Shown piece after piece: positions 52,540 through 64,000 of a stretch of 64,000 bases of DNA (within the stretch, counting starts at the first letter, position 1; each line of letters opens with the position of its first letter). Below the pieces are notes generated by a model. The model did not search any database. It was not told the DNA's origin and was given only the letters and a program-made list of their open reading frames with translations. Position numbers and translations under genes: made by a program. The stretch lies in NCBI GenBank assembly GCA_963666275.2, contig CAXXOA010000002.1, positions 1,504,001 through 1,568,000 on the forward strand, in the 5' to 3' direction. The DNA is from Oceanispirochaeta sp. (GTDB lineage: Bacteria; Spirochaetota; Spirochaetia; DSM-2461).

Positions 52540-55474
<2,935 letters not shown>

Positions 55475-55582
55475 TATTATTATTTATCTCTTCATTTATA
55501 TAAAATGCAATCGCTTTGTAAGCTACGAGTTTATGAAAGATGAATGCTTCTTATCAGGGCTTTGGCCTTGGTGAGATTATTA

Positions 55583-55690
55583 TCTGGTGGCTATTGCGTT
55601 GAGGTTATACCCGTTCCCATCCCGAACACGGAAGTCAAGCTCAACTGCGCCGATGGTACTGCTACGGTGGGAGAGTAGGTCGTCGCCAGT
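55583..55690 (+). rRNA. rrf: 5S rRNA
   Basis: CTGGTGGC/GTCGCCAG helix I; CCCGTTCCCATCCCGAACACGGAAGTCAAG; GATGGTACT...GGGAGAGTAGG. Confidence 0.97.
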
Positions 55691-55696
55691 TTATTT

Positions 55697-55730
55697 AACC
55701 CCCAGTCTACGGACTGGGGGTTTTTCTTTT
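55697..55730 (+). terminator. rRNA operon terminator
   Basis: AACCCCCAGTC-TACG-GACTGGGGGTT then TTTCTTTT. Confidence 0.9.
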
Positions 55731-55770
55731 ATAACACTGGACTTATCGGGGCGGAAGTTATGAAGAAAAT

Positions 55771-55784
55771 GTAACCTATGTTAC
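55771..55784. promoter_or_regulatory. Palindrome GTAAC-N4-GTTAC, candidate Crp/Fnr-family site
   Basis: Perfect 5-bp inverted repeat upstream of the Rrf2 operon promoter. Confidence 0.4.
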
Positions 55785-55833
55785 CGAATCTTCCTCTTTA
55801 AGCTCTATATCAGGGAATCTCATTTGAAATAAA

Positions 55834-55868
55834 TTGACAGTATATCTTTAAATAGGTATTGTGGTACC
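55834..55868 (+). promoter_or_regulatory. sigma70 promoter of the Rrf2 operon with overlapping GGTA-N6-TACC inverted repeat
   Basis: TTGACA-17 nt-TATTGT; GGTA 55855-55858 / TACC 55865-55868; SD AAGGAG downstream. Confidence 0.7.
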
Positions 55869-55886
55869 GAAATAAGGAGAGATTCA

Positions 55887-56324
55887 GTGATGAATAGTCT
55901 TTTAAATATATCTGAGGGAACATCCCTGGCTTTTCATGGTCTGGCCATGATGGCTGAAAAATCACCGGAACGGTTGAATGTCAAAGTTCTGGCGAAAGCT
56001 CTGGACGCTTCAGAAGCGCACCTTGCCAAGGTTATGCAGCGCCTGAATAAAGCGGGAATGATTTCTTCTGTCAGAGGGCCATCAGGAGGGTTCATTCTCA
56101 ATAAAGCCCCTCAGGAGATCGACTTCCTGCAGATCTATGAGATCATTGAGTCTTCTGTGAATCTAGCCGGATGTCCCCTTGGAAAGGCTACCTGTTCTCA
56201 GAAGAGATGTATTTTCGATGGAACAATGCAGAATCTGAATAAACAGATCTACTCAGCTTTAAAGCAGATCAGGCTGTCAGATTTCGCCCGGGATAATAAG
56301 AGTGAAGAAAGAGGTAGAATATGA
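55887..56324 (+). CDS. Rrf2-family transcriptional regulator with three Cys (probably Fe-S binding)
   Basis: ASEAHLAKVMQRL...SVRGPSGGF winged HTH; CPLGKATCSQKRC. Confidence 0.93.
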   Translation: MMNSLLNISEGTSLAFHGLAMMAEKSPERLNVKVLAKALDASEAHLAKVMQRLNKAGMISSVRGPSGGFILNKAPQEIDFLQIYEIIESSVNLAGCPLGKATCSQKRCIFDGTMQNLNKQIYSALKQIRLSDFARDNKSEERGRI

Positions 56325-57550
56325 AATATTTTAAAGTGGATGATACACTACTCAGTATAGTTGAAACTTTCCCTGAAACAGTTCCTGTATTTGTTTCCAA
56401 CGGATTTCCTCAGATGGATCAGGTGGAAAAAAGAGCCAAGTTTGCCGGTACAATCACACTGCAGAATGCTCTTCTACTGAAGCAGCTGGATGCGGATATA
56501 TTTGTAAAACTCCTTGAAGAGGCCATTGATCAGAAAAGGACAACCGGAGTGGATGCAACACTGCAGAGCCTGGAAAAAGTTCAGGATGAAGAGACTCTGA
56601 ATATTGTAGGCCTTTTACCCTGTCCTGTACGTTTACCCCTTCTGGAGGAGTTCAATACTTTTCATGACCAGTATAAGAGGACAGGCGGAGTTCATATAAA
56701 TCATGAACTGAAAGCGGCATCCATGGGTCTGGAATGGGTGGAAGAAAATATAGACGGTATTGAGAATGCGGAAAACCTGCCGGATCTTTTTCTTTCCGCC
56801 GGATTTGATATGTTCTTTGATGAAAAAAAAATAGGCAAGTTTAAAAAACAGGGTGTTTTTGAAGATACCACAAACCTGCCCTGTTTTAATGAAGAGTTTG
56901 AAAATATCCAGTTGAAGGATCCGGCAGGACACTACGGCATGATTGGAGTTGTTCCTGCGGTCTTCCTGATCAATCTGGATGAACTGGGAGAGCGGCAGCA
57001 GCCTGTGAGCTGGGCAGACATCCTCAAGCCCGAATTTGAACGACGTGTTTCACTGCCGGTTGGAGATTTTGATCTGTTCAACGGCATCCTGTTGAATATT
57101 CATAAACACTATGGTGATGATGGGCTTAGAAAACTGGGCAGGAGCCTTATGGAATCCATGCACCCCTCGCAGATGGTAAAGAGCCACACAAGGAAAGAGG
57201 AAAAACCGATTGTTACAATCATGCCCTATTTTTTTACCAAAATGGTGAGAGAAGGCAGCGGTATGGCCGCTGTCTGGCCAGAGGACGGAGCCATCATAAG
57301 TCCTATTTTTATGCTCTCCAAAAAGGATAAGCTGGAGAAACTGCAGCCTGTTATAGACTTTTTTGCCTCCCGGGAGGTGGGAGAAGTCCTTTCCCATAAG
57401 GGGCTGTTTCCCAGTGTTCATCCATCCGTGGATAATCATATCGACAGAGAAAAGAAATATATGTGGCTGGGGTGGGACTATATTTATTCCCATGATATAG
57501 CGGGACTGATAAAGCATTGTGAAAAAACATTCCACCAGGAGGTCGCATGA
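56321..57550 (+). CDS. ABC-type solute-binding-fold protein, no signal peptide, N-terminal DUF1858-like domain
   Basis: N-terminus TLLSIVETFPETVPVFVSNGF; PVSWADILKPEF and VWPEDGAIISP typical of Fe/polyamine-type SBPs; LLPCPVR. Confidence 0.75.
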   Translation: MKYFKVDDTLLSIVETFPETVPVFVSNGFPQMDQVEKRAKFAGTITLQNALLLKQLDADIFVKLLEEAIDQKRTTGVDATLQSLEKVQDEETLNIVGLLPCPVRLPLLEEFNTFHDQYKRTGGVHINHELKAASMGLEWVEENIDGIENAENLPDLFLSAGFDMFFDEKKIGKFKKQGVFEDTTNLPCFNEEFENIQLKDPAGHYGMIGVVPAVFLINLDELGERQQPVSWADILKPEFERRVSLPVGDFDLFNGILLNIHKHYGDDGLRKLGRSLMESMHPSQMVKSHTRKEEKPIVTIMPYFFTKMVREGSGMAAVWPEDGAIISPIFMLSKKDKLEKLQPVIDFFASREVGEVLSHKGLFPSVHPSVDNHIDREKKYMWLGWDYIYSHDIAGLIKHCEKTFHQEVA

Positions 57551-58266
57551 ATCTTGTAACTGTTTCCGGGCCCCCGTCCAGCGGGAAAACTTCTGTTATT
57601 CTCAAGACAATAGAAGCTCTTCAAAAAAGAAAATTGAAGGTAGGGGTTGCCAAATTCGACTGCCTCTATACGGACGATGATGTGCTCTATGAAAAAGCGG
57701 GCATCCCTGTTAAAAAGGGACTTTCCGGTGCCCTCTGTCCGGATCACTACTTTGTCAGCAATGTGGAAGAGGTCACCCAGTGGGGCATCCGGGAAGGATT
57801 TGATGTTCTTATCAGCGAATCCGCCGGACTCTGCAACCGCTGCTCCCCTTACATCAGGGATATTAAAGCGGTCTGTGTTATTGATAACCTGAGCGGTATC
57901 AATACACCGAAGAAGATCGGACCTATGCTCAAATCAGCGGATATCGTAGTGATTACCAAAGGAGATATTGTTTCACAGGCGGAAAGGGAAGTTTTTGCCA
58001 GCAGAGTGAATATGGTGAACCCTTCGGCTGTTATTATGAATATAAACGGTCTGACCGGGCAGGGCAGTTTTGAACTGAGTACTCTCCTTTTTGATGAGAA
58101 AAGGGACATTGAGACTCTTGTGGGAAAAAAACTCAGATTTTCCATGCCGTCTGCCCTGTGCTCCTACTGTCTGGGAGAAACCAGGATCGGAGAATCCTAT
58201 CAGATGGGGAATGTCAGAAAAATGGATCTTGAATCTGGAGGAACATCTCCGGGAGGTGCTTCGTGA
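57547..58266 (+). CDS. HypB/UreG-like (G3E) GTPase, Cys-rich
   Basis: GPPSSGKT; KFDC; LCPDH; ESAGLCNRC; TKGD; C-terminal CSYC. Confidence 0.85.
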   Translation: MNLVTVSGPPSSGKTSVILKTIEALQKRKLKVGVAKFDCLYTDDDVLYEKAGIPVKKGLSGALCPDHYFVSNVEEVTQWGIREGFDVLISESAGLCNRCSPYIRDIKAVCVIDNLSGINTPKKIGPMLKSADIVVITKGDIVSQAEREVFASRVNMVNPSAVIMNINGLTGQGSFELSTLLFDEKRDIETLVGKKLRFSMPSALCSYCLGETRIGESYQMGNVRKMDLESGGTSPGGAS

Positions 58267-59276
58267 TATCTCTTGAAAAACTGGAAGAAAGATCCCTGAA
58301 TGAGATTTTTAAAGATTACCCCTTTGTGGATGCTTTTTTAAAAAACAACGGGCTGGAAATTGCGGGCAAAGAGCATCTTTCCCTCCGGCAGATCCTGTCG
58401 GATATGGATGAGCAGGATCGGGAGGACAAGGCTCTGGATCCCGGGCACCTGACAGAGCAGATGCACGAATATATACAACAGATGCTTTCATTTCTGGGGG
58501 AGGACTCGGGGGTCCACTCCCTGACGATCCTGCCGGGTACAGACAAATCGGGAAATCCCGAGGGATTTTCTGAACTTGTTATCCGGAAAAGTGAGGTGAT
58601 TTCCATTGTAGGGCCAACAGGCTCGGGAAAGAGCCGTCTCCTGGGGGATATTGAGTGGGTTGCACAGAAAGATACTCCCACTTCCCGTCAGATTCTTATT
58701 AATGATGATCTGCCAGATACTTCCTGGCGGTTTTCATCCGCCAAAAAACTGGTGGCCCAGCTTTCCCAGAATATGAACTTTGTCATGGATCTGACTGTTG
58801 CCGAGTTTGTGAACCTTCATGCGGAAAGCCGTATGGTGGAGAACCGGGACGTTGTGGTTGAACGGATTATTGAAGAAGCCAACCGCCTGGCGGGAGAACC
58901 TTTCAGACCGCAGACCCCAATCACAAGTCTTTCAGGGGGACAATCCCGGGCTCTTATGATTGCGGATACAGCTATATTAAGCAAATCCCCCATTATACTG
59001 ATCGATGAGATTGAGAATGCCGGGATTGACAGGAAAAAGGCTCTGGAACTGCTTCTCACAGAAGAAAAAATTGTTCTTATGGCTACCCATGATCCTGTCC
59101 TGGCTCTCATGGGAGACAGAAGGATTGTCATTAAGAACGGCGGTATTTCAAAAGTCATTGAAACCACCGAAGAAGAGCGCAGTATTCTGGGACAACTGGA
59201 AGAACTGGATAAAACCCTGTTGAGTTACAGGACCCGTCTGCGAAGCGGGGAAAGTTTAGTTGATAAAGAAAAATAA
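58263..59276 (+). CDS. ABC-type ATPase with N-terminal helical (DUF1858-like) extension
   Basis: GPTGSGKS; LSQ; LSGGQ; ILIDE; ATHD; no TM segment. Confidence 0.88.
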   Translation: MISLEKLEERSLNEIFKDYPFVDAFLKNNGLEIAGKEHLSLRQILSDMDEQDREDKALDPGHLTEQMHEYIQQMLSFLGEDSGVHSLTILPGTDKSGNPEGFSELVIRKSEVISIVGPTGSGKSRLLGDIEWVAQKDTPTSRQILINDDLPDTSWRFSSAKKLVAQLSQNMNFVMDLTVAEFVNLHAESRMVENRDVVVERIIEEANRLAGEPFRPQTPITSLSGGQSRALMIADTAILSKSPIILIDEIENAGIDRKKALELLLTEEKIVLMATHDPVLALMGDRRIVIKNGGISKVIETTEEERSILGQLEELDKTLLSYRTRLRSGESLVDKEK

Positions 59277-59294
59277 TCGAGGAGAAATTGAGAT

Positions 59295-59537
59295 ATGCAT
59301 GATGGTTGTTCAGGTAGTTTTGAAAACGGAAAACAGGTCGTAGATAAAGTAAGGATGATGGGATTTTCCGGTCAGTATATGCCCATGCCCATGCAGGTTC
59401 CCTGTGGAAACTGCGGGGTTTCCTTTGAGATGGAAACCTTTGAAGCCCGGTGCCCTGACTGCGGGTCTGTTCATGCGGTGACTCCCTGTCATGCCTTTGA
59501 CCCGGCTAATGTCCTGAATGCCGGTGTGGGGTACTGA
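59295..59537 (+). CDS. Small Cys/His-rich metal-binding protein (Zn ribbon, HypA-reminiscent)
   Basis: SD GAGGAG; MHDGC N-terminus; CGNC-x12-CPDC; TPCH. Confidence 0.85.
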   Translation: MHDGCSGSFENGKQVVDKVRMMGFSGQYMPMPMQVPCGNCGVSFEMETFEARCPDCGSVHAVTPCHAFDPANVLNAGVGY

Positions 59538-59588
59538 ATTCGGTATATTTATTTGCCGGGAGCCAGTAATTCTTAGTATATTTAACAT

Positions 59589-61838
59589 GTGAAAGACAAA
59601 TCTTTTTATCAGATCCTATCCAAACTGGCCGGGAATGTTTCTCTTTTCGAGTCCTACGGGGAAGCTGATAACTTCCTGAAAGAGGCTATCCACAGGCTTA
59701 TGGAAAAAGCCGGTTCTTCTCTGGGGGCAGTCTACCTCTATAATCCCCAGAGTGAGGAACTGGAATTCCGGGTCGGTTATGATAAAAATGATTACTGGGA
59801 TACCCTGAGATGCGGTGACCAGACAGCTCCCAAAAGTTTTTCCCTGGACGGGAATGAGGTGGGACGGGCTTTCAGAGAGGGCTCCAATAAAATCGTCAAA
59901 TCCTCTGAAGAGGACAGCTCTTCCCTGAAGTCAAAAATTATAATTCCTATTGTCAGAGGGCCCGAGAAAATCGGGGTTCTCCTGATTGCCCATGAGGACA
60001 GGGATTTTTTTGATTCCATTAATAATGCGGATCTTATGAGTGCCGTATCTCTGCTGGGGGATATCCTGGTAGAGGCGAATTCGCTTCTGGAGCATTGGAA
60101 GAACAGAAAGAAAATCAAATCCGGCACTCTGCCTGAAAGGATCCAGGGAAAGAAGGCCTCCGGCGGTATTGTTTCCGGTCTGGCTCTGCCTATCTGGGGA
60201 GATATCGATGCGGTTGTTCAGTCTCTGCCTCCCAAAGGTTCAGTGCTTGAAGAAAAAGCTCTTTTTGAACAGGCCCTTGCCCAGTCCCGGAAGCAGCTGG
60301 AAGAGTTTCAGGATGGAGCGGATCCGGACAGTGAAAGTATGGTCTCTCTTATTTTCACAGCCCAGATCTATATGCTCAAGGATCAGAGTTTTACAGGAAA
60401 GATCCTGACCCTTATTGAGTCGGGAAGTTCTGCTGCTGTGGCGGTAAAAACTGTTGTCAATGAATATGCCGCCCTGTTTTCCGGAATGGATGATGCCAGA
60501 CTGGCGGAGAAAGCTCAGGATGTGAGAGATCTGGGATACCGGATTGTAACCAATATGGGCAAGATGAAGAACAGGGATTTCAGTTATGAGAATAGAATCA
60601 TACTGTCCCGTCATATCTACCCTTCCGATCTCTACAGGCTTGCGGTGGAAGGAGCCTCCGGCCTTGTTCTGAAAGGATCAGGCGTCACCGCCCATATTTC
60701 CATTCTTGCCAGATCTCTGAAGCTGCCTGTTATCATTTCAGAAGACAATTCGTTTCTGCAGATTCCCGCGGGGACACCTCTGCTGCTGGATGCCGACAGA
60801 GGGCTTCTTCTTGTAAATCCTTCGGAAGAAAAACTGGCAGACCTGTCCCATAAGAAGAGCCTTGATAAGCAGCATGGCGCCTATACTCTCAAAGGACAGT
60901 CGGCCGATGGAATTCCAGTGGCCGTTATGGCCAATATCAATATTTACAAGGACGCCCAGGAAGCGGTTGTTCAGGGGGCCGAAGGGATCGGATTATACAG
61001 AAGTGAGTTTCCCTTCATCGTCAAAAATGATTTTCTTTCCGAAGAACAGCAGTTCCGTATCTACAGATCCATTGTCAAAACCCAGGGAAAGAAACCTGTG
61101 ATTCTCCGGACCGCCGATATCGGAGGGGATAAACTCCTCAAAGGCCGGGAGGGAGATGAAAGCAATCCCTTCCTGGGTGTGAGGGGGATACGGTTTTCTC
61201 TGTCTCACCGTGAAATGTTCCGGGACCAGATCAGGGCTATGCTGAGAGCGGGGTACGAGTCAGACCTGCATATACTTCTGCCCATGGTCACAGACGTGGA
61301 TGAAATCATCCAGGCCCGGGAGGAAATTGCCTTCTGCAGCCGTCAGCTGGAACGCAGGGGGGATCCTTTCAATATGTATCCGAAACTGGGGGCTATGATA
61401 GAGCTTCCCTCGGCAGCTATGGGTGTGCGGGAGATTGCCATTGAAACGGACTTTCTCTCCATCGGAACGAACGACCTGACCATGTATCTTCTGGCAGTGG
61501 ACAGAACCAATGAAAACCTCAGTCATCTCTACAGCAGTCATCATCCTACAGTTCTGAAGATGCTGGCCACCATAGCGGAGGATGCGGGTGATAAGAGAGG
61601 GCAGATTTCCGTTTGCGGTGATGCCGCCTCGGATCCCGTGATGATTCCCTTTTTTATGGGGCTGGGAATCCGGAAACTCAGTGTCTCGCCTGAACAGATT
61701 GAAACTGTCAAACAGTCCATCAGAAAATATACCATGGAGGATGCCCGGCAGATCACCGGGGAGATGCTCCAGATACGCCGTCTTCCCCAGGTGAAAGAGT
61801 ATATTGCTTCCTTTTCTTCTGAAAAATCAGATAACTGA
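59589..61838 (+). CDS. ptsP: GAF-domain PTS enzyme I (PtsP / EI-Ntr-like)
   Basis: N-terminal GAF-like domain (GAVYLYNP...IIIPIVRGPEKIGVL); GVTAHISILARS; GIGLYRSEF; SIGTNDL. Confidence 0.88.
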   Translation: MKDKSFYQILSKLAGNVSLFESYGEADNFLKEAIHRLMEKAGSSLGAVYLYNPQSEELEFRVGYDKNDYWDTLRCGDQTAPKSFSLDGNEVGRAFREGSNKIVKSSEEDSSSLKSKIIIPIVRGPEKIGVLLIAHEDRDFFDSINNADLMSAVSLLGDILVEANSLLEHWKNRKKIKSGTLPERIQGKKASGGIVSGLALPIWGDIDAVVQSLPPKGSVLEEKALFEQALAQSRKQLEEFQDGADPDSESMVSLIFTAQIYMLKDQSFTGKILTLIESGSSAAVAVKTVVNEYAALFSGMDDARLAEKAQDVRDLGYRIVTNMGKMKNRDFSYENRIILSRHIYPSDLYRLAVEGASGLVLKGSGVTAHISILARSLKLPVIISEDNSFLQIPAGTPLLLDADRGLLLVNPSEEKLADLSHKKSLDKQHGAYTLKGQSADGIPVAVMANINIYKDAQEAVVQGAEGIGLYRSEFPFIVKNDFLSEEQQFRIYRSIVKTQGKKPVILRTADIGGDKLLKGREGDESNPFLGVRGIRFSLSHREMFRDQIRAMLRAGYESDLHILLPMVTDVDEIIQAREEIAFCSRQLERRGDPFNMYPKLGAMIELPSAAMGVREIAIETDFLSIGTNDLTMYLLAVDRTNENLSHLYSSHHPTVLKMLATIAEDAGDKRGQISVCGDAASDPVMIPFFMGLGIRKLSVSPEQIETVKQSIRKYTMEDARQITGEMLQIRRLPQVKEYIASFSSEKSDN

Positions 61839-61926: not shown

Positions 61927-62403
61927 ATGAAAACTGCCATAGCGTATTATTCAAAAAAAGGATTCGTAGAGGAAGCCGCCCGGAGACTGGCGGATTCACT
62001 GGGAAATTCGGCCTCACTGTGGGATATCCATTCGGGGAAGGGTACTGCTCTGGAAGAGGCGGATGTGGTCGTTCTGGCTTCTTCGGTCCATGCGGGACAT
62101 TTTTCAGGGAAATTCAGGAAAACCTGCCGGAAGTGGATTCCTCTTCTGGAGAACCGAAAAGTCGTTCTTCTGGTTGGCGGCCTGGATGATAAAGAGTATG
62201 TCTCGACGGTGGAAAAAAATCTCTCCAGAGAGCTTTCAGACAGAATCTGGAAGATAGTCTATGCAGGGGGGCGTTACATTCCGGAGAATCACGGGCCTTT
62301 TATCAGGAAGCTCATGGCAAAAATCAATCAGTCAGAAGGACCGATCCATAAAGAGAAATGGGAGAATCTGGAGGCGCTGGCGGGAGAGATCAAGTCTCTG
62401 TGA
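61927..62403 (+). CDS. Flavodoxin-domain protein (HemG-like)
   Basis: IAYYSKKGFV FMN-loop-like start; VVLASSVHAG; YAGGRY. Confidence 0.8.
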   Translation: MKTAIAYYSKKGFVEEAARRLADSLGNSASLWDIHSGKGTALEEADVVVLASSVHAGHFSGKFRKTCRKWIPLLENRKVVLLVGGLDDKEYVSTVEKNLSRELSDRIWKIVYAGGRYIPENHGPFIRKLMAKINQSEGPIHKEKWENLEALAGEIKSL

Positions 62404-62480
62404 TTGAAAAAATTATATAATATTATAAAAATAGTAATATATTATGGAAATTCCGGGAAAGATGAATATGCTTTAGAAGT

Positions 62481-62861
62481 ATGAAAAAGATTACCTTAAT
62501 AGTTCTAATTAGTATTTTGTTTACAGCGGCTCTTGCAGCAATTGACATACCCGAGAATGTAGACCTTTCCAATCAGCCTGCAGGTGTAAAAACAATCGAG
62601 GCTTCCAACAGGGGGTTTACCTTTTATCCCTCAACCATCACGGTGAAAAAAGGGGATACCATACGGCTGACCTATACCAACGGCGGAGGTTACCATGACT
62701 GGGTTATTGATGAGTTTGGAGCCGCCACAAATCAGATCTCCGGCGGAAAGTCAGAGACCATCGAGTTTACAGTGGATCAGACCGGAACATTCGAGTTCTA
62801 CTGCAGCGTGGGAAACCATCGTAAGCAGGGAATGTTCGGTAAGCTGATTGTGGTTGACTGA
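62481..62861 (+). CDS. Secreted cupredoxin (type-1 copper ligand set)
   Basis: Signal peptide; GYHDW and YCSVGNHRKQGM (His, Cys, His, Met). Confidence 0.9.
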   Translation: MKKITLIVLISILFTAALAAIDIPENVDLSNQPAGVKTIEASNRGFTFYPSTITVKKGDTIRLTYTNGGGYHDWVIDEFGAATNQISGGKSETIEFTVDQTGTFEFYCSVGNHRKQGMFGKLIVVD

Positions 62862-62886
62862 GTTAGCCTCTTTTTTCCCTCTTGTT

Positions 62887-62919
62887 AAAACCTGCAGTTC
62901 TTGGCTGCAGGTTTTTTTT
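62887..62919 (+). terminator. Intrinsic terminator after the cupredoxin gene
   Basis: AAAACCTGCAG-loop-CTGCAGGTTTTTTTT. Confidence 0.85.
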
Positions 62920-62978
62920 GCTTTTCATAGGACCGGTTCTGTTATACTTTATGGTACGCTGCAGGAGGTGAGCCGTCT

Positions 62979-63623
62979 ATGTTTCTGGGAAAAACAAAAA
63001 CTCTTGAAAATGAGATCGATAAGTTTCTGGGGAAAATCCAGGATATCAATCAGATGTCCTATGATGCCATAACAGAATATCTGAAAGAAGATACAGTGCA
63101 TTTTGAGAATCATGTAGAGAGGGTCCGGACTCTGGAGAAGGAGATTGATGATCTGAGGATATCCATTGAACACTCCCTGTACGGCGGTATGCTGATACCT
63201 GAATCCCGGGGTGATATCCTGGGTATACTGGAGTCTCTGGATGATGTGGCAGACTCGGCAAAGGAAGTCACTGTCTCTCTGGATATTGAAAAACCCGGGT
63301 TTCCCGATTTTCTGAAACAGGGATTTCTGAAAATGGCCCTAATGAGCCGGGATTCTGTGGATGAACTGATCCAGGCTGTCCATCTGTTTTTCACCAATTC
63401 AGATCTGACCGGGAGGTTTATCAAGAAGGTCAACTACTATGAACATGAGATTGATCTGATGGAGGAGGATCTGAAGCGTCAGGTTTTTTCCAGTTCAGAA
63501 CTGGACTGGCTGAGCCATAAGATCCATCTGCGCTACTTTATAGAGAAGCTGGCCGAGATTTCCGATGGCGCCGAGTCGGTCAGTCAGCGGCTGATCCTGT
63601 CTACCATGAAACGGAGCATCTGA
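62979..63623 (+). CDS. DUF47 / PhoU-like phosphate transport regulator
   Basis: LEKEIDDLR...RGDILGILESLDDVAD; YEHEIDLME; precedes a PiT gene. Confidence 0.88.
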   Translation: MFLGKTKTLENEIDKFLGKIQDINQMSYDAITEYLKEDTVHFENHVERVRTLEKEIDDLRISIEHSLYGGMLIPESRGDILGILESLDDVADSAKEVTVSLDIEKPGFPDFLKQGFLKMALMSRDSVDELIQAVHLFFTNSDLTGRFIKKVNYYEHEIDLMEEDLKRQVFSSSELDWLSHKIHLRYFIEKLAEISDGAESVSQRLILSTMKRSI

Positions 63624-63630
63624 GGCCTAT

Positions 63631-64000
63631 ATGATCAATCTGCTTTTTTATCTGTCCAGCGGACTGTTTCTGGGATGGTCTCTGGGAGCCAATGACGCGG
63701 CTAATGTGTTCGGTACGGCTGTGGGATCCCGAATGGTCCGGTTTAAAGTGGCCGCCGCCATATGCAGTGTTGCCCTGATCATCGGAGCCATCGCCGGAGG
63801 AGCCGGTGCCAGTCACACTCTGGGAAAGCTGGGGGCTGTCAGTGCCCTCCCCGGAGCCTTCACGGTTGCCCTATCCGCGGCTGTGTCTGTTTTTTTCATG
63901 ACCAAAACGGGGCTTCCCGTGTCCACCTCCCAGGCGATTGTCGGGGGGATCATAGGGTGGAACCTTTTTGCAGGTCTTCCCACAGATCCGGAAGCCTTCA
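63631..64000 (+). CDS. PiT-family inorganic phosphate transporter, 5' part (runs off window)
   Basis: Manual translation MINLLFYLSSGLFLGWSLGANDAANVFGTAVGS...GLPVSTSQAIVGG. Confidence 0.92.
   Translation, partial: MINLLFYLSSGLFLGWSLGANDAANVFGTAVGSRMVRFKVAAAICSVALIIGAIAGGAGASHTLGKLGAVSALPGAFTVALSAAVSVFFMTKTGLPVSTSQAIVGGIIGWNLFAGLPTDPEAF

Follow-up and report, generated by a model that had tools for sequence, protein, structure and literature searches.

What can a solute-binding-fold protein (SBP), a GTPase and an ATP-binding cassette (ABC) ATPase do together in the cytoplasm, with no permease gene beside them? The question is raised by five genes in a stretch of 64,000 nucleotides (the window; contig CAXXOA010000002.1, positions 1,504,001 to 1,568,000) from the genome of an Oceanispirochaeta species (G000; 5.27 Mb, 97% complete). 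The operon carries operator sites in common with two distant hcp genes, and this regulation is the strongest evidence on its function. We give an even chance to the proposal that its products form a machine, induced by nitric oxide (NO) and powered by GTP and ATP, for loading or repairing iron-sulfur (Fe-S)-type centers; Hcp would be a likely client, but not a required one. The genes are as follows.

55887..56324, plus strand: rrf2, Rrf2-family regulator of 145 amino acids, predicted Fe-S sensor (PF02082, 5.5e-28)
56321..57550, plus strand: SBP gene, cytoplasmic protein of 409 amino acids with a DUF1858-like and a solute-binding-fold domain (SBP_bac_6, 8.3e-81)
57547..58266, plus strand: GTPase gene, G3E-type protein of UreG/HypB fold, 239 amino acids (Pfam cobW/HypB/UreG, PF02492, 3.1e-12)
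58263..59276, plus strand: ABC ATPase gene, soluble protein of 337 amino acids with an N-terminal helical domain (ABC_tran, 1.7e-15)
59295..59537, plus strand: small gene, accessory zinc-ribbon/rubredoxin-like Cys/His protein of 80 amino acids

The five open reading frames lie where an earlier note on this DNA had put them, with the junctions it described: three 4-bp overlaps (ATGA, ATGA and GTGA), then an 18-nt gap before the small gene. None of the five proteins reaches the cut-off of a specific named family in Pfam or NCBIfam. That note had read the locus as a soluble five-gene system linked to NO or redox stress and distinct from ABC importers. Our analysis upholds its solubility, its separation from importers and the NO/redox link; the five-gene system was overstated. 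We scanned species genomes with the GTPase and took the best 80 loci of at least 542 relatives for neighborhood counts. They span spirochetes, Cloacimonadota, Bacteroidota, Fermentibacterota, clostridia and others, and linkage counts refer to loci with enough flanking sequence to test. An SBP gene lies directly upstream of the GTPase gene in 74/74 close loci and an ABC ATPase gene directly downstream in 75/75. The small gene is present in 65 of 69 and rrf2 in 28 of 63. Gene linkage, which the earlier note had proposed to survey and whose absence would have counted against it, is thus conserved far beyond chance. What stands of the five-gene system is a three-gene core of SBP, GTPase and ATPase; the small gene is optional, being missing from 10 class A loci (L098-L100, L132-L138), and Rrf2, encoded in under half of the loci, is an exchangeable regulator outside the conserved unit.

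Homologues of the GTPase are spread over several phyla, with Fusobacterium and Treponema among the genera, and a search at E<=1e-10 returned 6,469 clusters, not sorted by branch, the best 120 at 82-96% identity. We divided the family by identity to the window's GTPase into branches A (class A, >=68%), B (50-67%) and C (<50%). These tiers match gene context, and branch B is not a single clade. Compared across the branches, the invariant unit is the GTPase with its ABC ATPase, and the third subunit is swappable. In two proteins, GTPase and ABC ATPase are fused in frame (P0123, 613 amino acids, from a cluster of 11 members; P0124, 509 amino acids). We discounted a seeming SBP-GTPase fusion (P0177), along with P0122, P0127, P0140 and P0197, as probably arising from frameshifts. 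We draw no order of events from the GTPase tree, because the HypB branch is very long and the deep nodes are unstarred. In five spirochete loci (L002, L003, L006, L031 and L057), the operon lies near a divergent nifS-nifU pair; nifSU is unlinked in the window's genome.

Three sites upstream of rrf2 bear on regulation.

55771..55784, no strand assigned: HcpR2-type box GTAAC-N4-GTTAC, predicted activator site of an NO-responsive Crp/Fnr regulator
55834..55862, plus strand: sigma70-type promoter (TTGACA, 17 nt, TATTGT), the best-scoring site of the region (10/12)
55849..55874, no strand assigned: palindromic operator overlapping the -10 element, predicted site of Rrf2 autorepression

The HcpR2 motif is defined in the accessible sections of PMC1274295, together with a protein signature, a proline at position 181. 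The exact box occurs three times in the 5.27-Mb genome, upstream of this operon and of two hcp genes, with identical 14 bases in all three. About 0.86 copies are expected by chance and other spacings gave 0-2, so the count is not significant alone and the evidence lies in the placement. A Crp protein encoded near one of the hcp genes (G000:C2:1739890-1740576) has a recognition helix with the Arg-Pro typical of HcpR2; box and HcpR2-type regulator, the two marks of an HcpR2 regulon, are both present. The operon thereby has the same operator as the HcpR2 regulon (hcp, frdX) of PMC1274295, in whose accessible sections F. nucleatum and T. denticola are assigned predicted regulons consisting of hcp genes alone and the operon is unmentioned. 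Unlike that hcp-only regulon, a Fusobacterium record (L001) has an HcpR2 box upstream of the SBP-GTPase-ATPase triad.

A matrix of the Rrf2 operator, built from 29 other rrf2-led loci, scores one hcp promoter at 29.8 bits, the operon at 27.6 and the second hcp promoter at 20.4. Unrelated sites follow at 19.4 and 19.3, the better of them just 1 bit below the third-ranked site. The two hcp genes with common operators lie 180-690 kb from the operon. Across related loci, the HcpR2 box is found in 24 of 44 SBP-led loci and in 0 of 29 rrf2-led loci; all 29 rrf2-led loci have the Rrf2 operator, preceded by TTGAC in those inspected. The window's operon carries both sites. By these patterns two different regulators would reach the same operon, alternating across species. 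Within the 27 loci that contain hcp, no Rrf2 operator was found upstream of that gene (best, 18/24 matches in one locus). Six Fermentibacterota loci (L019, L035, L043, L044, L051 and L060) have neither operator and share another conserved upstream stretch, possibly the site of a third regulator. At the second hcp promoter (G000:C2:2248219-2249389, L165), a CPF_0552-family gene is oriented divergently; an S-adenosylmethionine methyltransferase gene there is preceded by a fourth HcpR2-like site (20.9 bits), and a transposase-like gene lies nearby.

The Rrf2 protein falls below the IscR, NsrR, CymR, RirA, HypR and Suf-regulator cut-offs. Its residues Cys-96, Cys-103, Cys-108, Glu-10, His-17 and His-45 are conserved in 32-34 of 34 sequences, and His-17 aligns with the N-terminal His of 6hsd/6y45, which we take to be RsrR. 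These conserved Cys, Glu and His residues are suited to an Fe-S cluster, and we predict that the protein is an Fe-S sensor. The earlier note had arrived at the link to NO or redox stress by a different route and had overlooked both operator sites, as well as the DUF1858-like domains of the SBP and ATPase; the link is borne out by the HcpR2 box and Rrf2 operator that the operon has in common with two hcp promoters. In C. difficile, HcpR-dependent induction of hcp by NO is ~200-fold (PMC12915319, accessible sections). We infer from the shared sites that the operon, too, would be induced by NO.

The association with Hcp extends to other genomes. Three hcp genes are found in the window's genome, all distant from the operon. 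Among the 80 loci, hcp lies inside the locus in 27 and in the carrier genome in 69 (27 in the locus, 3/3 and 39/50 further), and the operon is thus nearly always accompanied by hcp. In a sample of 201 spirochete-phylum genomes, a close GTPase was found in 12, and 11 of these 12 carriers have hcp, compared with 62 of all 201, counts in which close kin are not independent. The third hcp gene of the window's genome belongs to a probable NO-defense island (G000:C2:1333033-1347276, L166), devoid of an exact HcpR2 box, with a Crp/Fnr regulator gene, a flavodiiron (flavorubredoxin-like) gene, a gene for the RIC di-iron repair protein over cut-off, a second Crp gene and a gene of the 'nitrous oxide-stimulated promoter' family. 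Several other genes of this island resemble those flanking the cassette in L005, L033, L041 and L056, and genes similar to those of L165 recur beside the third hcp.

We compared the proteins with characterized relatives. In a structural model (pLDDT 87.8), the predicted GTPase fold is closest to UreG (5xkt; Z 21.0, root mean square deviation 2.3 over 184 residues) and HypB (Z 16-18; 4lps, Z 17.8), with the matches spanning residues 1-199; the C-terminal 40 residues are barely covered by the comparison. Nitrogenase Fe proteins also match (Z 12.0-12.3). The GKT motif, Glu-91 and Lys-138-x-Asp-140 are invariant, and PF02492 scores above its cut-off, as expected of a SIMIBI P-loop GTPase of the G3E type. 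Scores for named subfamilies are far lower: 45.3 bits against a cut-off of 121.2 for HypB (TIGR00073), where the genome's own HypB reaches 243.7, and 26.6 against 204.2 for UreG (TIGR00101). A Cys-64-Pro-Asp-His-67 motif, Cys-96, Cys-99, Cys-205 and Cys-208 are invariant in 68/68 sequences from all three branches, which makes five invariant cysteines. Cys-64 and Cys-99 align with cysteines of the genome's own HypB, whose adjacent His is replaced by Pro here, with a His at position 67. Because three cysteines are present beyond HypB's two, we predict that the GTPase binds a cluster rather than one ion.

The ATPase has invariant Walker A, Gln-169 (Q-loop), LSGGQ, Walker B (Asp-248-Glu-249) and His-276 (H-loop) in 68 sequences, and its closest solved relatives are of the MJ0796/MacB/BceA type. 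Its N-terminal domain resembles the DUF1858-like N-terminus of the SBP weakly (hhalign probability 56%); the latter itself falls just under the Pfam cut-off (2e-7). A single-sequence search with the SBP against the PDB gave nothing at E<=1, and a profile search did match. The AlphaFold2 model of the SBP (pLDDT 91.6) groups with P5PA, FbpA, FutA and AfuA at 10-16% identity, and Leu-99-Pro-100-Cys-101 (after the first strand), His-281-Pro-282 and Phe-305 are conserved. In the small protein, His-2, Cys-5, Cys-37, Cys-40, Cys-53, Cys-56 and Cys-65 are invariant in 48 sequences. It scores 20.8 bits against the HypA model PF01155 (cut-off 28.9; 4e-4) over residues 30-60, short of the full Ni-binding domain; the ribbon alone matches HypA over 28 hhalign columns at 80% probability. 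No solved relative of the small protein was found at E<0.07. Its Atlas matches are unnamed clusters, with one auto-named HypA that has no common Pfam family, and the nearest named clusters are rubredoxin-like (0.87-0.88), a lead only.

The sister branches show the engine in other company. Branch B mostly keeps the cytoplasmic SBP and lies next to complete importers that have an ATPase and an exported-type SBP of their own. Permeases stand beside 7 of 9 clostridial-phylum loci (five by Pfam, two by likeness) and importers beside 10 of 13 loci in one Bacteroidota-phylum clade, there with TonB receptors, methyltransferases and TOBE/ModA-type genes. A loosely defined ModE-like pattern matches 10/13 loci of this clade, 1/8 clostridial branch B loci and 7/21 longer class A control loci. 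In the 13 genomes of the clade (L183-L193, L195 and L196), loci with a TonB receptor, a FecCD importer, a methyltransferase, TOBE/ModE- and ModA-type genes and ModE-like boxes form a candidate route for uptake and processing of chelated molybdenum. Branch C has no SBP and uses an Fe-S protein (PF04060) as its third subunit. Some of its loci lie beside nifS, cysC/cysD/cysN-like genes (cys names from sequence), metY/metA, cysK and another Rrf2 gene; sulfur genes are nearby in a minority. Some Bacteroidota-type loci (L194, which is G202:C11; L247-L260; L264) have the ATPase-GTPase-FeS triad beside a two-component-like pair. G202 holds both this triad and a class A operon, and G258 has three GTPase copies in three contexts.

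The window's GTPase shares 48% identity with one named from a Methanobacteriaceae archaeon, and the related ATPases are 52-54% identical. The archaeal GTPase retrieved 72 loci, 54 of them of at least 7 kb, of which 40 are of methanobacterial type; as close kin, these 40 count as one observation. In 36 of the 40, comA lies directly upstream of ATPase-GTPase-FeS, and one representative passes the ComA cut-off. In L197-L244, L261, L263 and L265, the order comA, ATPase, GTPase, FeS is fixed and continues into a conserved gene of 294 amino acids (no NCBIfam match at 1e-15). A triad of ATPase, Ni-binding GTPase and COG2000 Fe-S protein, often by coenzyme M genes, is described as of unknown role in the legend of Fig. 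2 of a 2025 paper on methanogens (PMC12068725 and preprint bioRxiv 10.1101/2025.02.10.637553). The methanobacterial triad is likely the same one, judged by composition and context rather than by locus tags. Its GTPase and ATPase are related to those of the window, whereas its third subunit is an Fe-S protein instead of an SBP, its order is ATPase-GTPase-FeS, and its context is sulfur and coenzyme M metabolism rather than NO. Metal-sulfur chemistry is indicated because the Fe-S (PF04060) subunit of the sister branch adjoins nifS, metY/metA/cysK-like genes and comA.

How might such a machine work? NO would activate HcpR2 and strip the cluster from Rrf2, lifting repression, as suggested by the operators common to two hcp genes. 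GTPase and ATPase would form a complex acting as one engine, to which their constant adjacency and the fusions point. A GTP-gated GTPase dimer is predicted to hold an Fe-S cluster in its five invariant cysteines rather than a single nickel ion. With its conserved Cys-101, the SBP may take up iron or nitrosylated Fe-S debris as cargo, and the ATPase cycle, as for SufC, may move this cargo between SBP, GTPase and client, with the zinc-ribbon protein as an optional carrier. Hcp would be the most likely client, although not an obligatory one.

Several observations weigh against this reading. The invariant GTPase cysteines could hold zinc or nickel, and the branch B engine stands in molybdenum-uptake loci, which Fe-S repair does not directly explain. 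Eleven of the 80 carrier genomes have no hcp match, all of them titled metagenome-assembled genomes of unknown completeness. In G125, which is 99% complete, the triad is present, no hcp was found and the locus has no HcpR2 box; the box is likewise missing from L099. Conversely, 51 of the 62 hcp-positive spirochete-phylum genomes lack the operon. In a clostridial-phylum sample of 251 genomes, hcp is present in each of the 29 that carry any member of the family, a co-occurrence that says little because hcp is so common there (193/251), and 185 of these 193 are without the class A form. Since most genomes with hcp manage without the operon, it is not a general Hcp maturase.

Two alternatives assign the operon to established types of system. 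ABC importers need an exported SBP plus a permease, and the operon could be part of an importer whose permease gene lies elsewhere, or could form a receiving arm that docks on an importer from the cytoplasm. We hold this to be highly improbable, even though the ABC motifs are intact, the SBP fold is that of iron and polyamine importers (FbpA/FutA/AfuA/P5PA/PotD type; Foldseek E 1e-14 to 1e-11) and branch B stands beside permeases in both phyla. The operon has the intact ATPase of an importer and lacks an exported SBP and a linked permease. Maximum hydropathy over 19 residues is 0.58-1.39 across the five proteins, in agreement with the earlier note's claim that none has a transmembrane (TM) segment or signal peptide, and our hydropathy/lipobox script found a hydrophobic N-terminus or lipobox in 0/95 related SBPs. 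A same-strand gene with at least four TM segments lies within 2.5 kb in 4 of 45 well-flanked class A loci, from four different families; no permease family recurs among these 45, which leaves room for an unlinked one. A permease linked to homologues, the mark of an importer for the earlier note, does not recur in class A and is partly found in branch B, where the permeases bring their own ATPase and a separate SBP of exported type. The window's SBP further differs from those of importers in its DUF1858-like domain, its conserved cysteine and its low identity, two proteins join ATPase and GTPase in one chain, and branch C does without any SBP. An insertase like HypA/HypB for a single nickel, cobalt or zinc ion, serving an unknown enzyme, is very unlikely. 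It would account for the UreG/HypB fold, for Cys-64 and Cys-99 at the positions of HypB's two cysteines, and for a small partner with an N-terminal His-2 and a zinc ribbon as in HypA. Against it, no [NiFe]-hydrogenase large subunit over cut-off was found in G000, G180, G200, G125 and G202 (one is present in G138), urease alpha over cut-off was found in 0 of 5 genomes, and another contig of the window's genome holds a distinct HypB gene, whose product passes the TIGR00073 cut-off, along with a HypA-like gene. In contrast to HypAB and UreE/F/G/D, whose client enzymes were not found in most carriers tested, the operon's GTPase (~24% identity) ends in an added CxxC extension, has three invariant cysteines beyond HypB's two, and has an ABC ATPase and a protein of binding fold for partners; the HypA match covers 28 columns. 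The true HypB and HypA-like genes (G000:C3:132171-135884, L163) flank a gene for a 912-amino-acid oxidoreductase resembling the glutamate synthase small subunit.

Two further alternatives share most of the anatomy with Fe-S loading or repair and differ in the direction of chemistry. In one, the engine dismantles metal-sulfur compounds or moves their sulfur instead of building clusters: here, nitrosylated Fe-S debris would be taken apart and its iron and sulfur recycled, and in the sister branches molybdenum would be freed from an imported chelate, or sulfur passed to synthesis of cysteine, methionine or coenzyme M. An invariant GTPase-ATPase pair in three contexts (NO defense, molybdenum-type importers with TOBE/ModE-, ModA- and ModD-like genes and ModE-like boxes, and sulfur assimilation or comA) speaks for it, as does an SBP fold suited to capturing small molecules. 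We nevertheless regard it as unlikely: the loose ModE pattern also occurs in the class A control loci, sulfur genes lie near only a minority of branch C loci, and characterized G3E GTPases load cofactors. In the other, the operon encodes a nucleotide-driven electron donor or reductive activator akin to the nitrogenase iron protein, in which a GTPase dimer carrying a cluster works with the rubredoxin-like small protein to feed electrons to Hcp or to reset its oxidized cluster. The accessible sections of PMC10210160 indicate no partner and no dedicated reductase for class I Hcp, and both the nitrogenase Fe protein match of the GTPase and the rubredoxin-like Atlas lead fit such a donor. It is still distinctly unlikely, since the GTPase resembles UreG/HypB (Z 16-21) far more than NifH, the operon has no conserved flavoprotein, a ferredoxin-like gene occurs in just 8/81 loci, the SBP is left unexplained, and the small gene can be missing.

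Fe-S loading or repair also has to be set against the known systems that it most resembles. SufC is a soluble ABC ATPase that works without a permease in the Fe-S scaffold SufBCD, and here, likewise, a permease-free ABC ATPase that retains its catalytic motifs is encoded in an Rrf2-led operon predicted to respond to stress. It differs from SufBCD in that the ATPase is partnered with a GTPase and finds no SufC model among its 25 best NCBIfam matches. No SufB/SufD-like family recurs among the neighbors in the 80 loci, as judged by clustering and sequence rather than a SufB profile scan, and the genes flanking that of the ATPase are those for the GTPase and the small protein or hcp. The SBP N-terminal domain weakly matches ScdA (9j47, E 0.49), one of the RIC/YtfE/ScdA repair proteins, but no di-iron hemerythrin domain was found in the operon proteins with Pfam. 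The operon would work most like G3E metallochaperone systems and SufBCD, yet by the features tested it belongs to none of HypAB, UreG, Suf and ABC importers.

The surroundings agree with the earlier note in offering no adjoining permease gene: a 5S rRNA gene and a terminator lie upstream and a PtsP-like gene downstream.

55583-55691: 5S rRNA gene (Rfam), upstream of the operon
55697-55722: terminator between the 5S rRNA gene and the operon

An Rfam scan of 55450-59700 returned the 5S rRNA alone and no riboswitch. The PtsP-like gene, which contains a GAF domain, directly follows the operon (window 59589-61838); it was rejected as an operon member, with a single distant match (28%) among the 80 loci. 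A 35%-identical paralogue (G000:C2:160100-162820) also abuts an Rrf2 gene, in convergent orientation, close to two CobW-like GTPase genes. Farther downstream (window 61927-63999) are genes for a flavodoxin-like protein, an exported cupredoxin and a DUF47/PhoU-like protein, then the start of a membrane protein resembling a phosphate transporter.

A literature search found no description or characterization of the operon, whose genes may be listed in regulon databases or supplementary tables; it is not mentioned in the accessible sections of PMC5701242, PMC13056359 and PMC13140499. Our analysis covers the dual operator common to unlinked hcp genes, the GTPase-ABC fusions and the three-branch structure of the family. 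On a broader view, which we put forward tentatively and consider possible though doubtful, the GTPase-ATPase pair would be an unrecognized general engine for metal-sulfur handling in anaerobic bacteria and methanogens, driven by two different NTPases and redirected by a swappable third subunit: an SBP for NO-damaged Fe-S material, feeding Hcp; another SBP for imported molybdenum chelates; or an Fe-S protein that supplies sulfur for making cysteine, methionine and coenzyme M. Such a pathway would stand apart from Isc, Suf, Nif and HypAB. For assembly, repair or reduction of the Hcp hybrid cluster in strict anaerobes, the operon supplies named and highly conserved candidates. Biochemical work on the GTPase-ATPase pair alone could make sense of three gene clusters at once, including the methanogen triad, and if our proposal is true, a G3E GTPase, a soluble ABC ATPase and a cytoplasmic SBP would together represent a new metallochaperone architecture.

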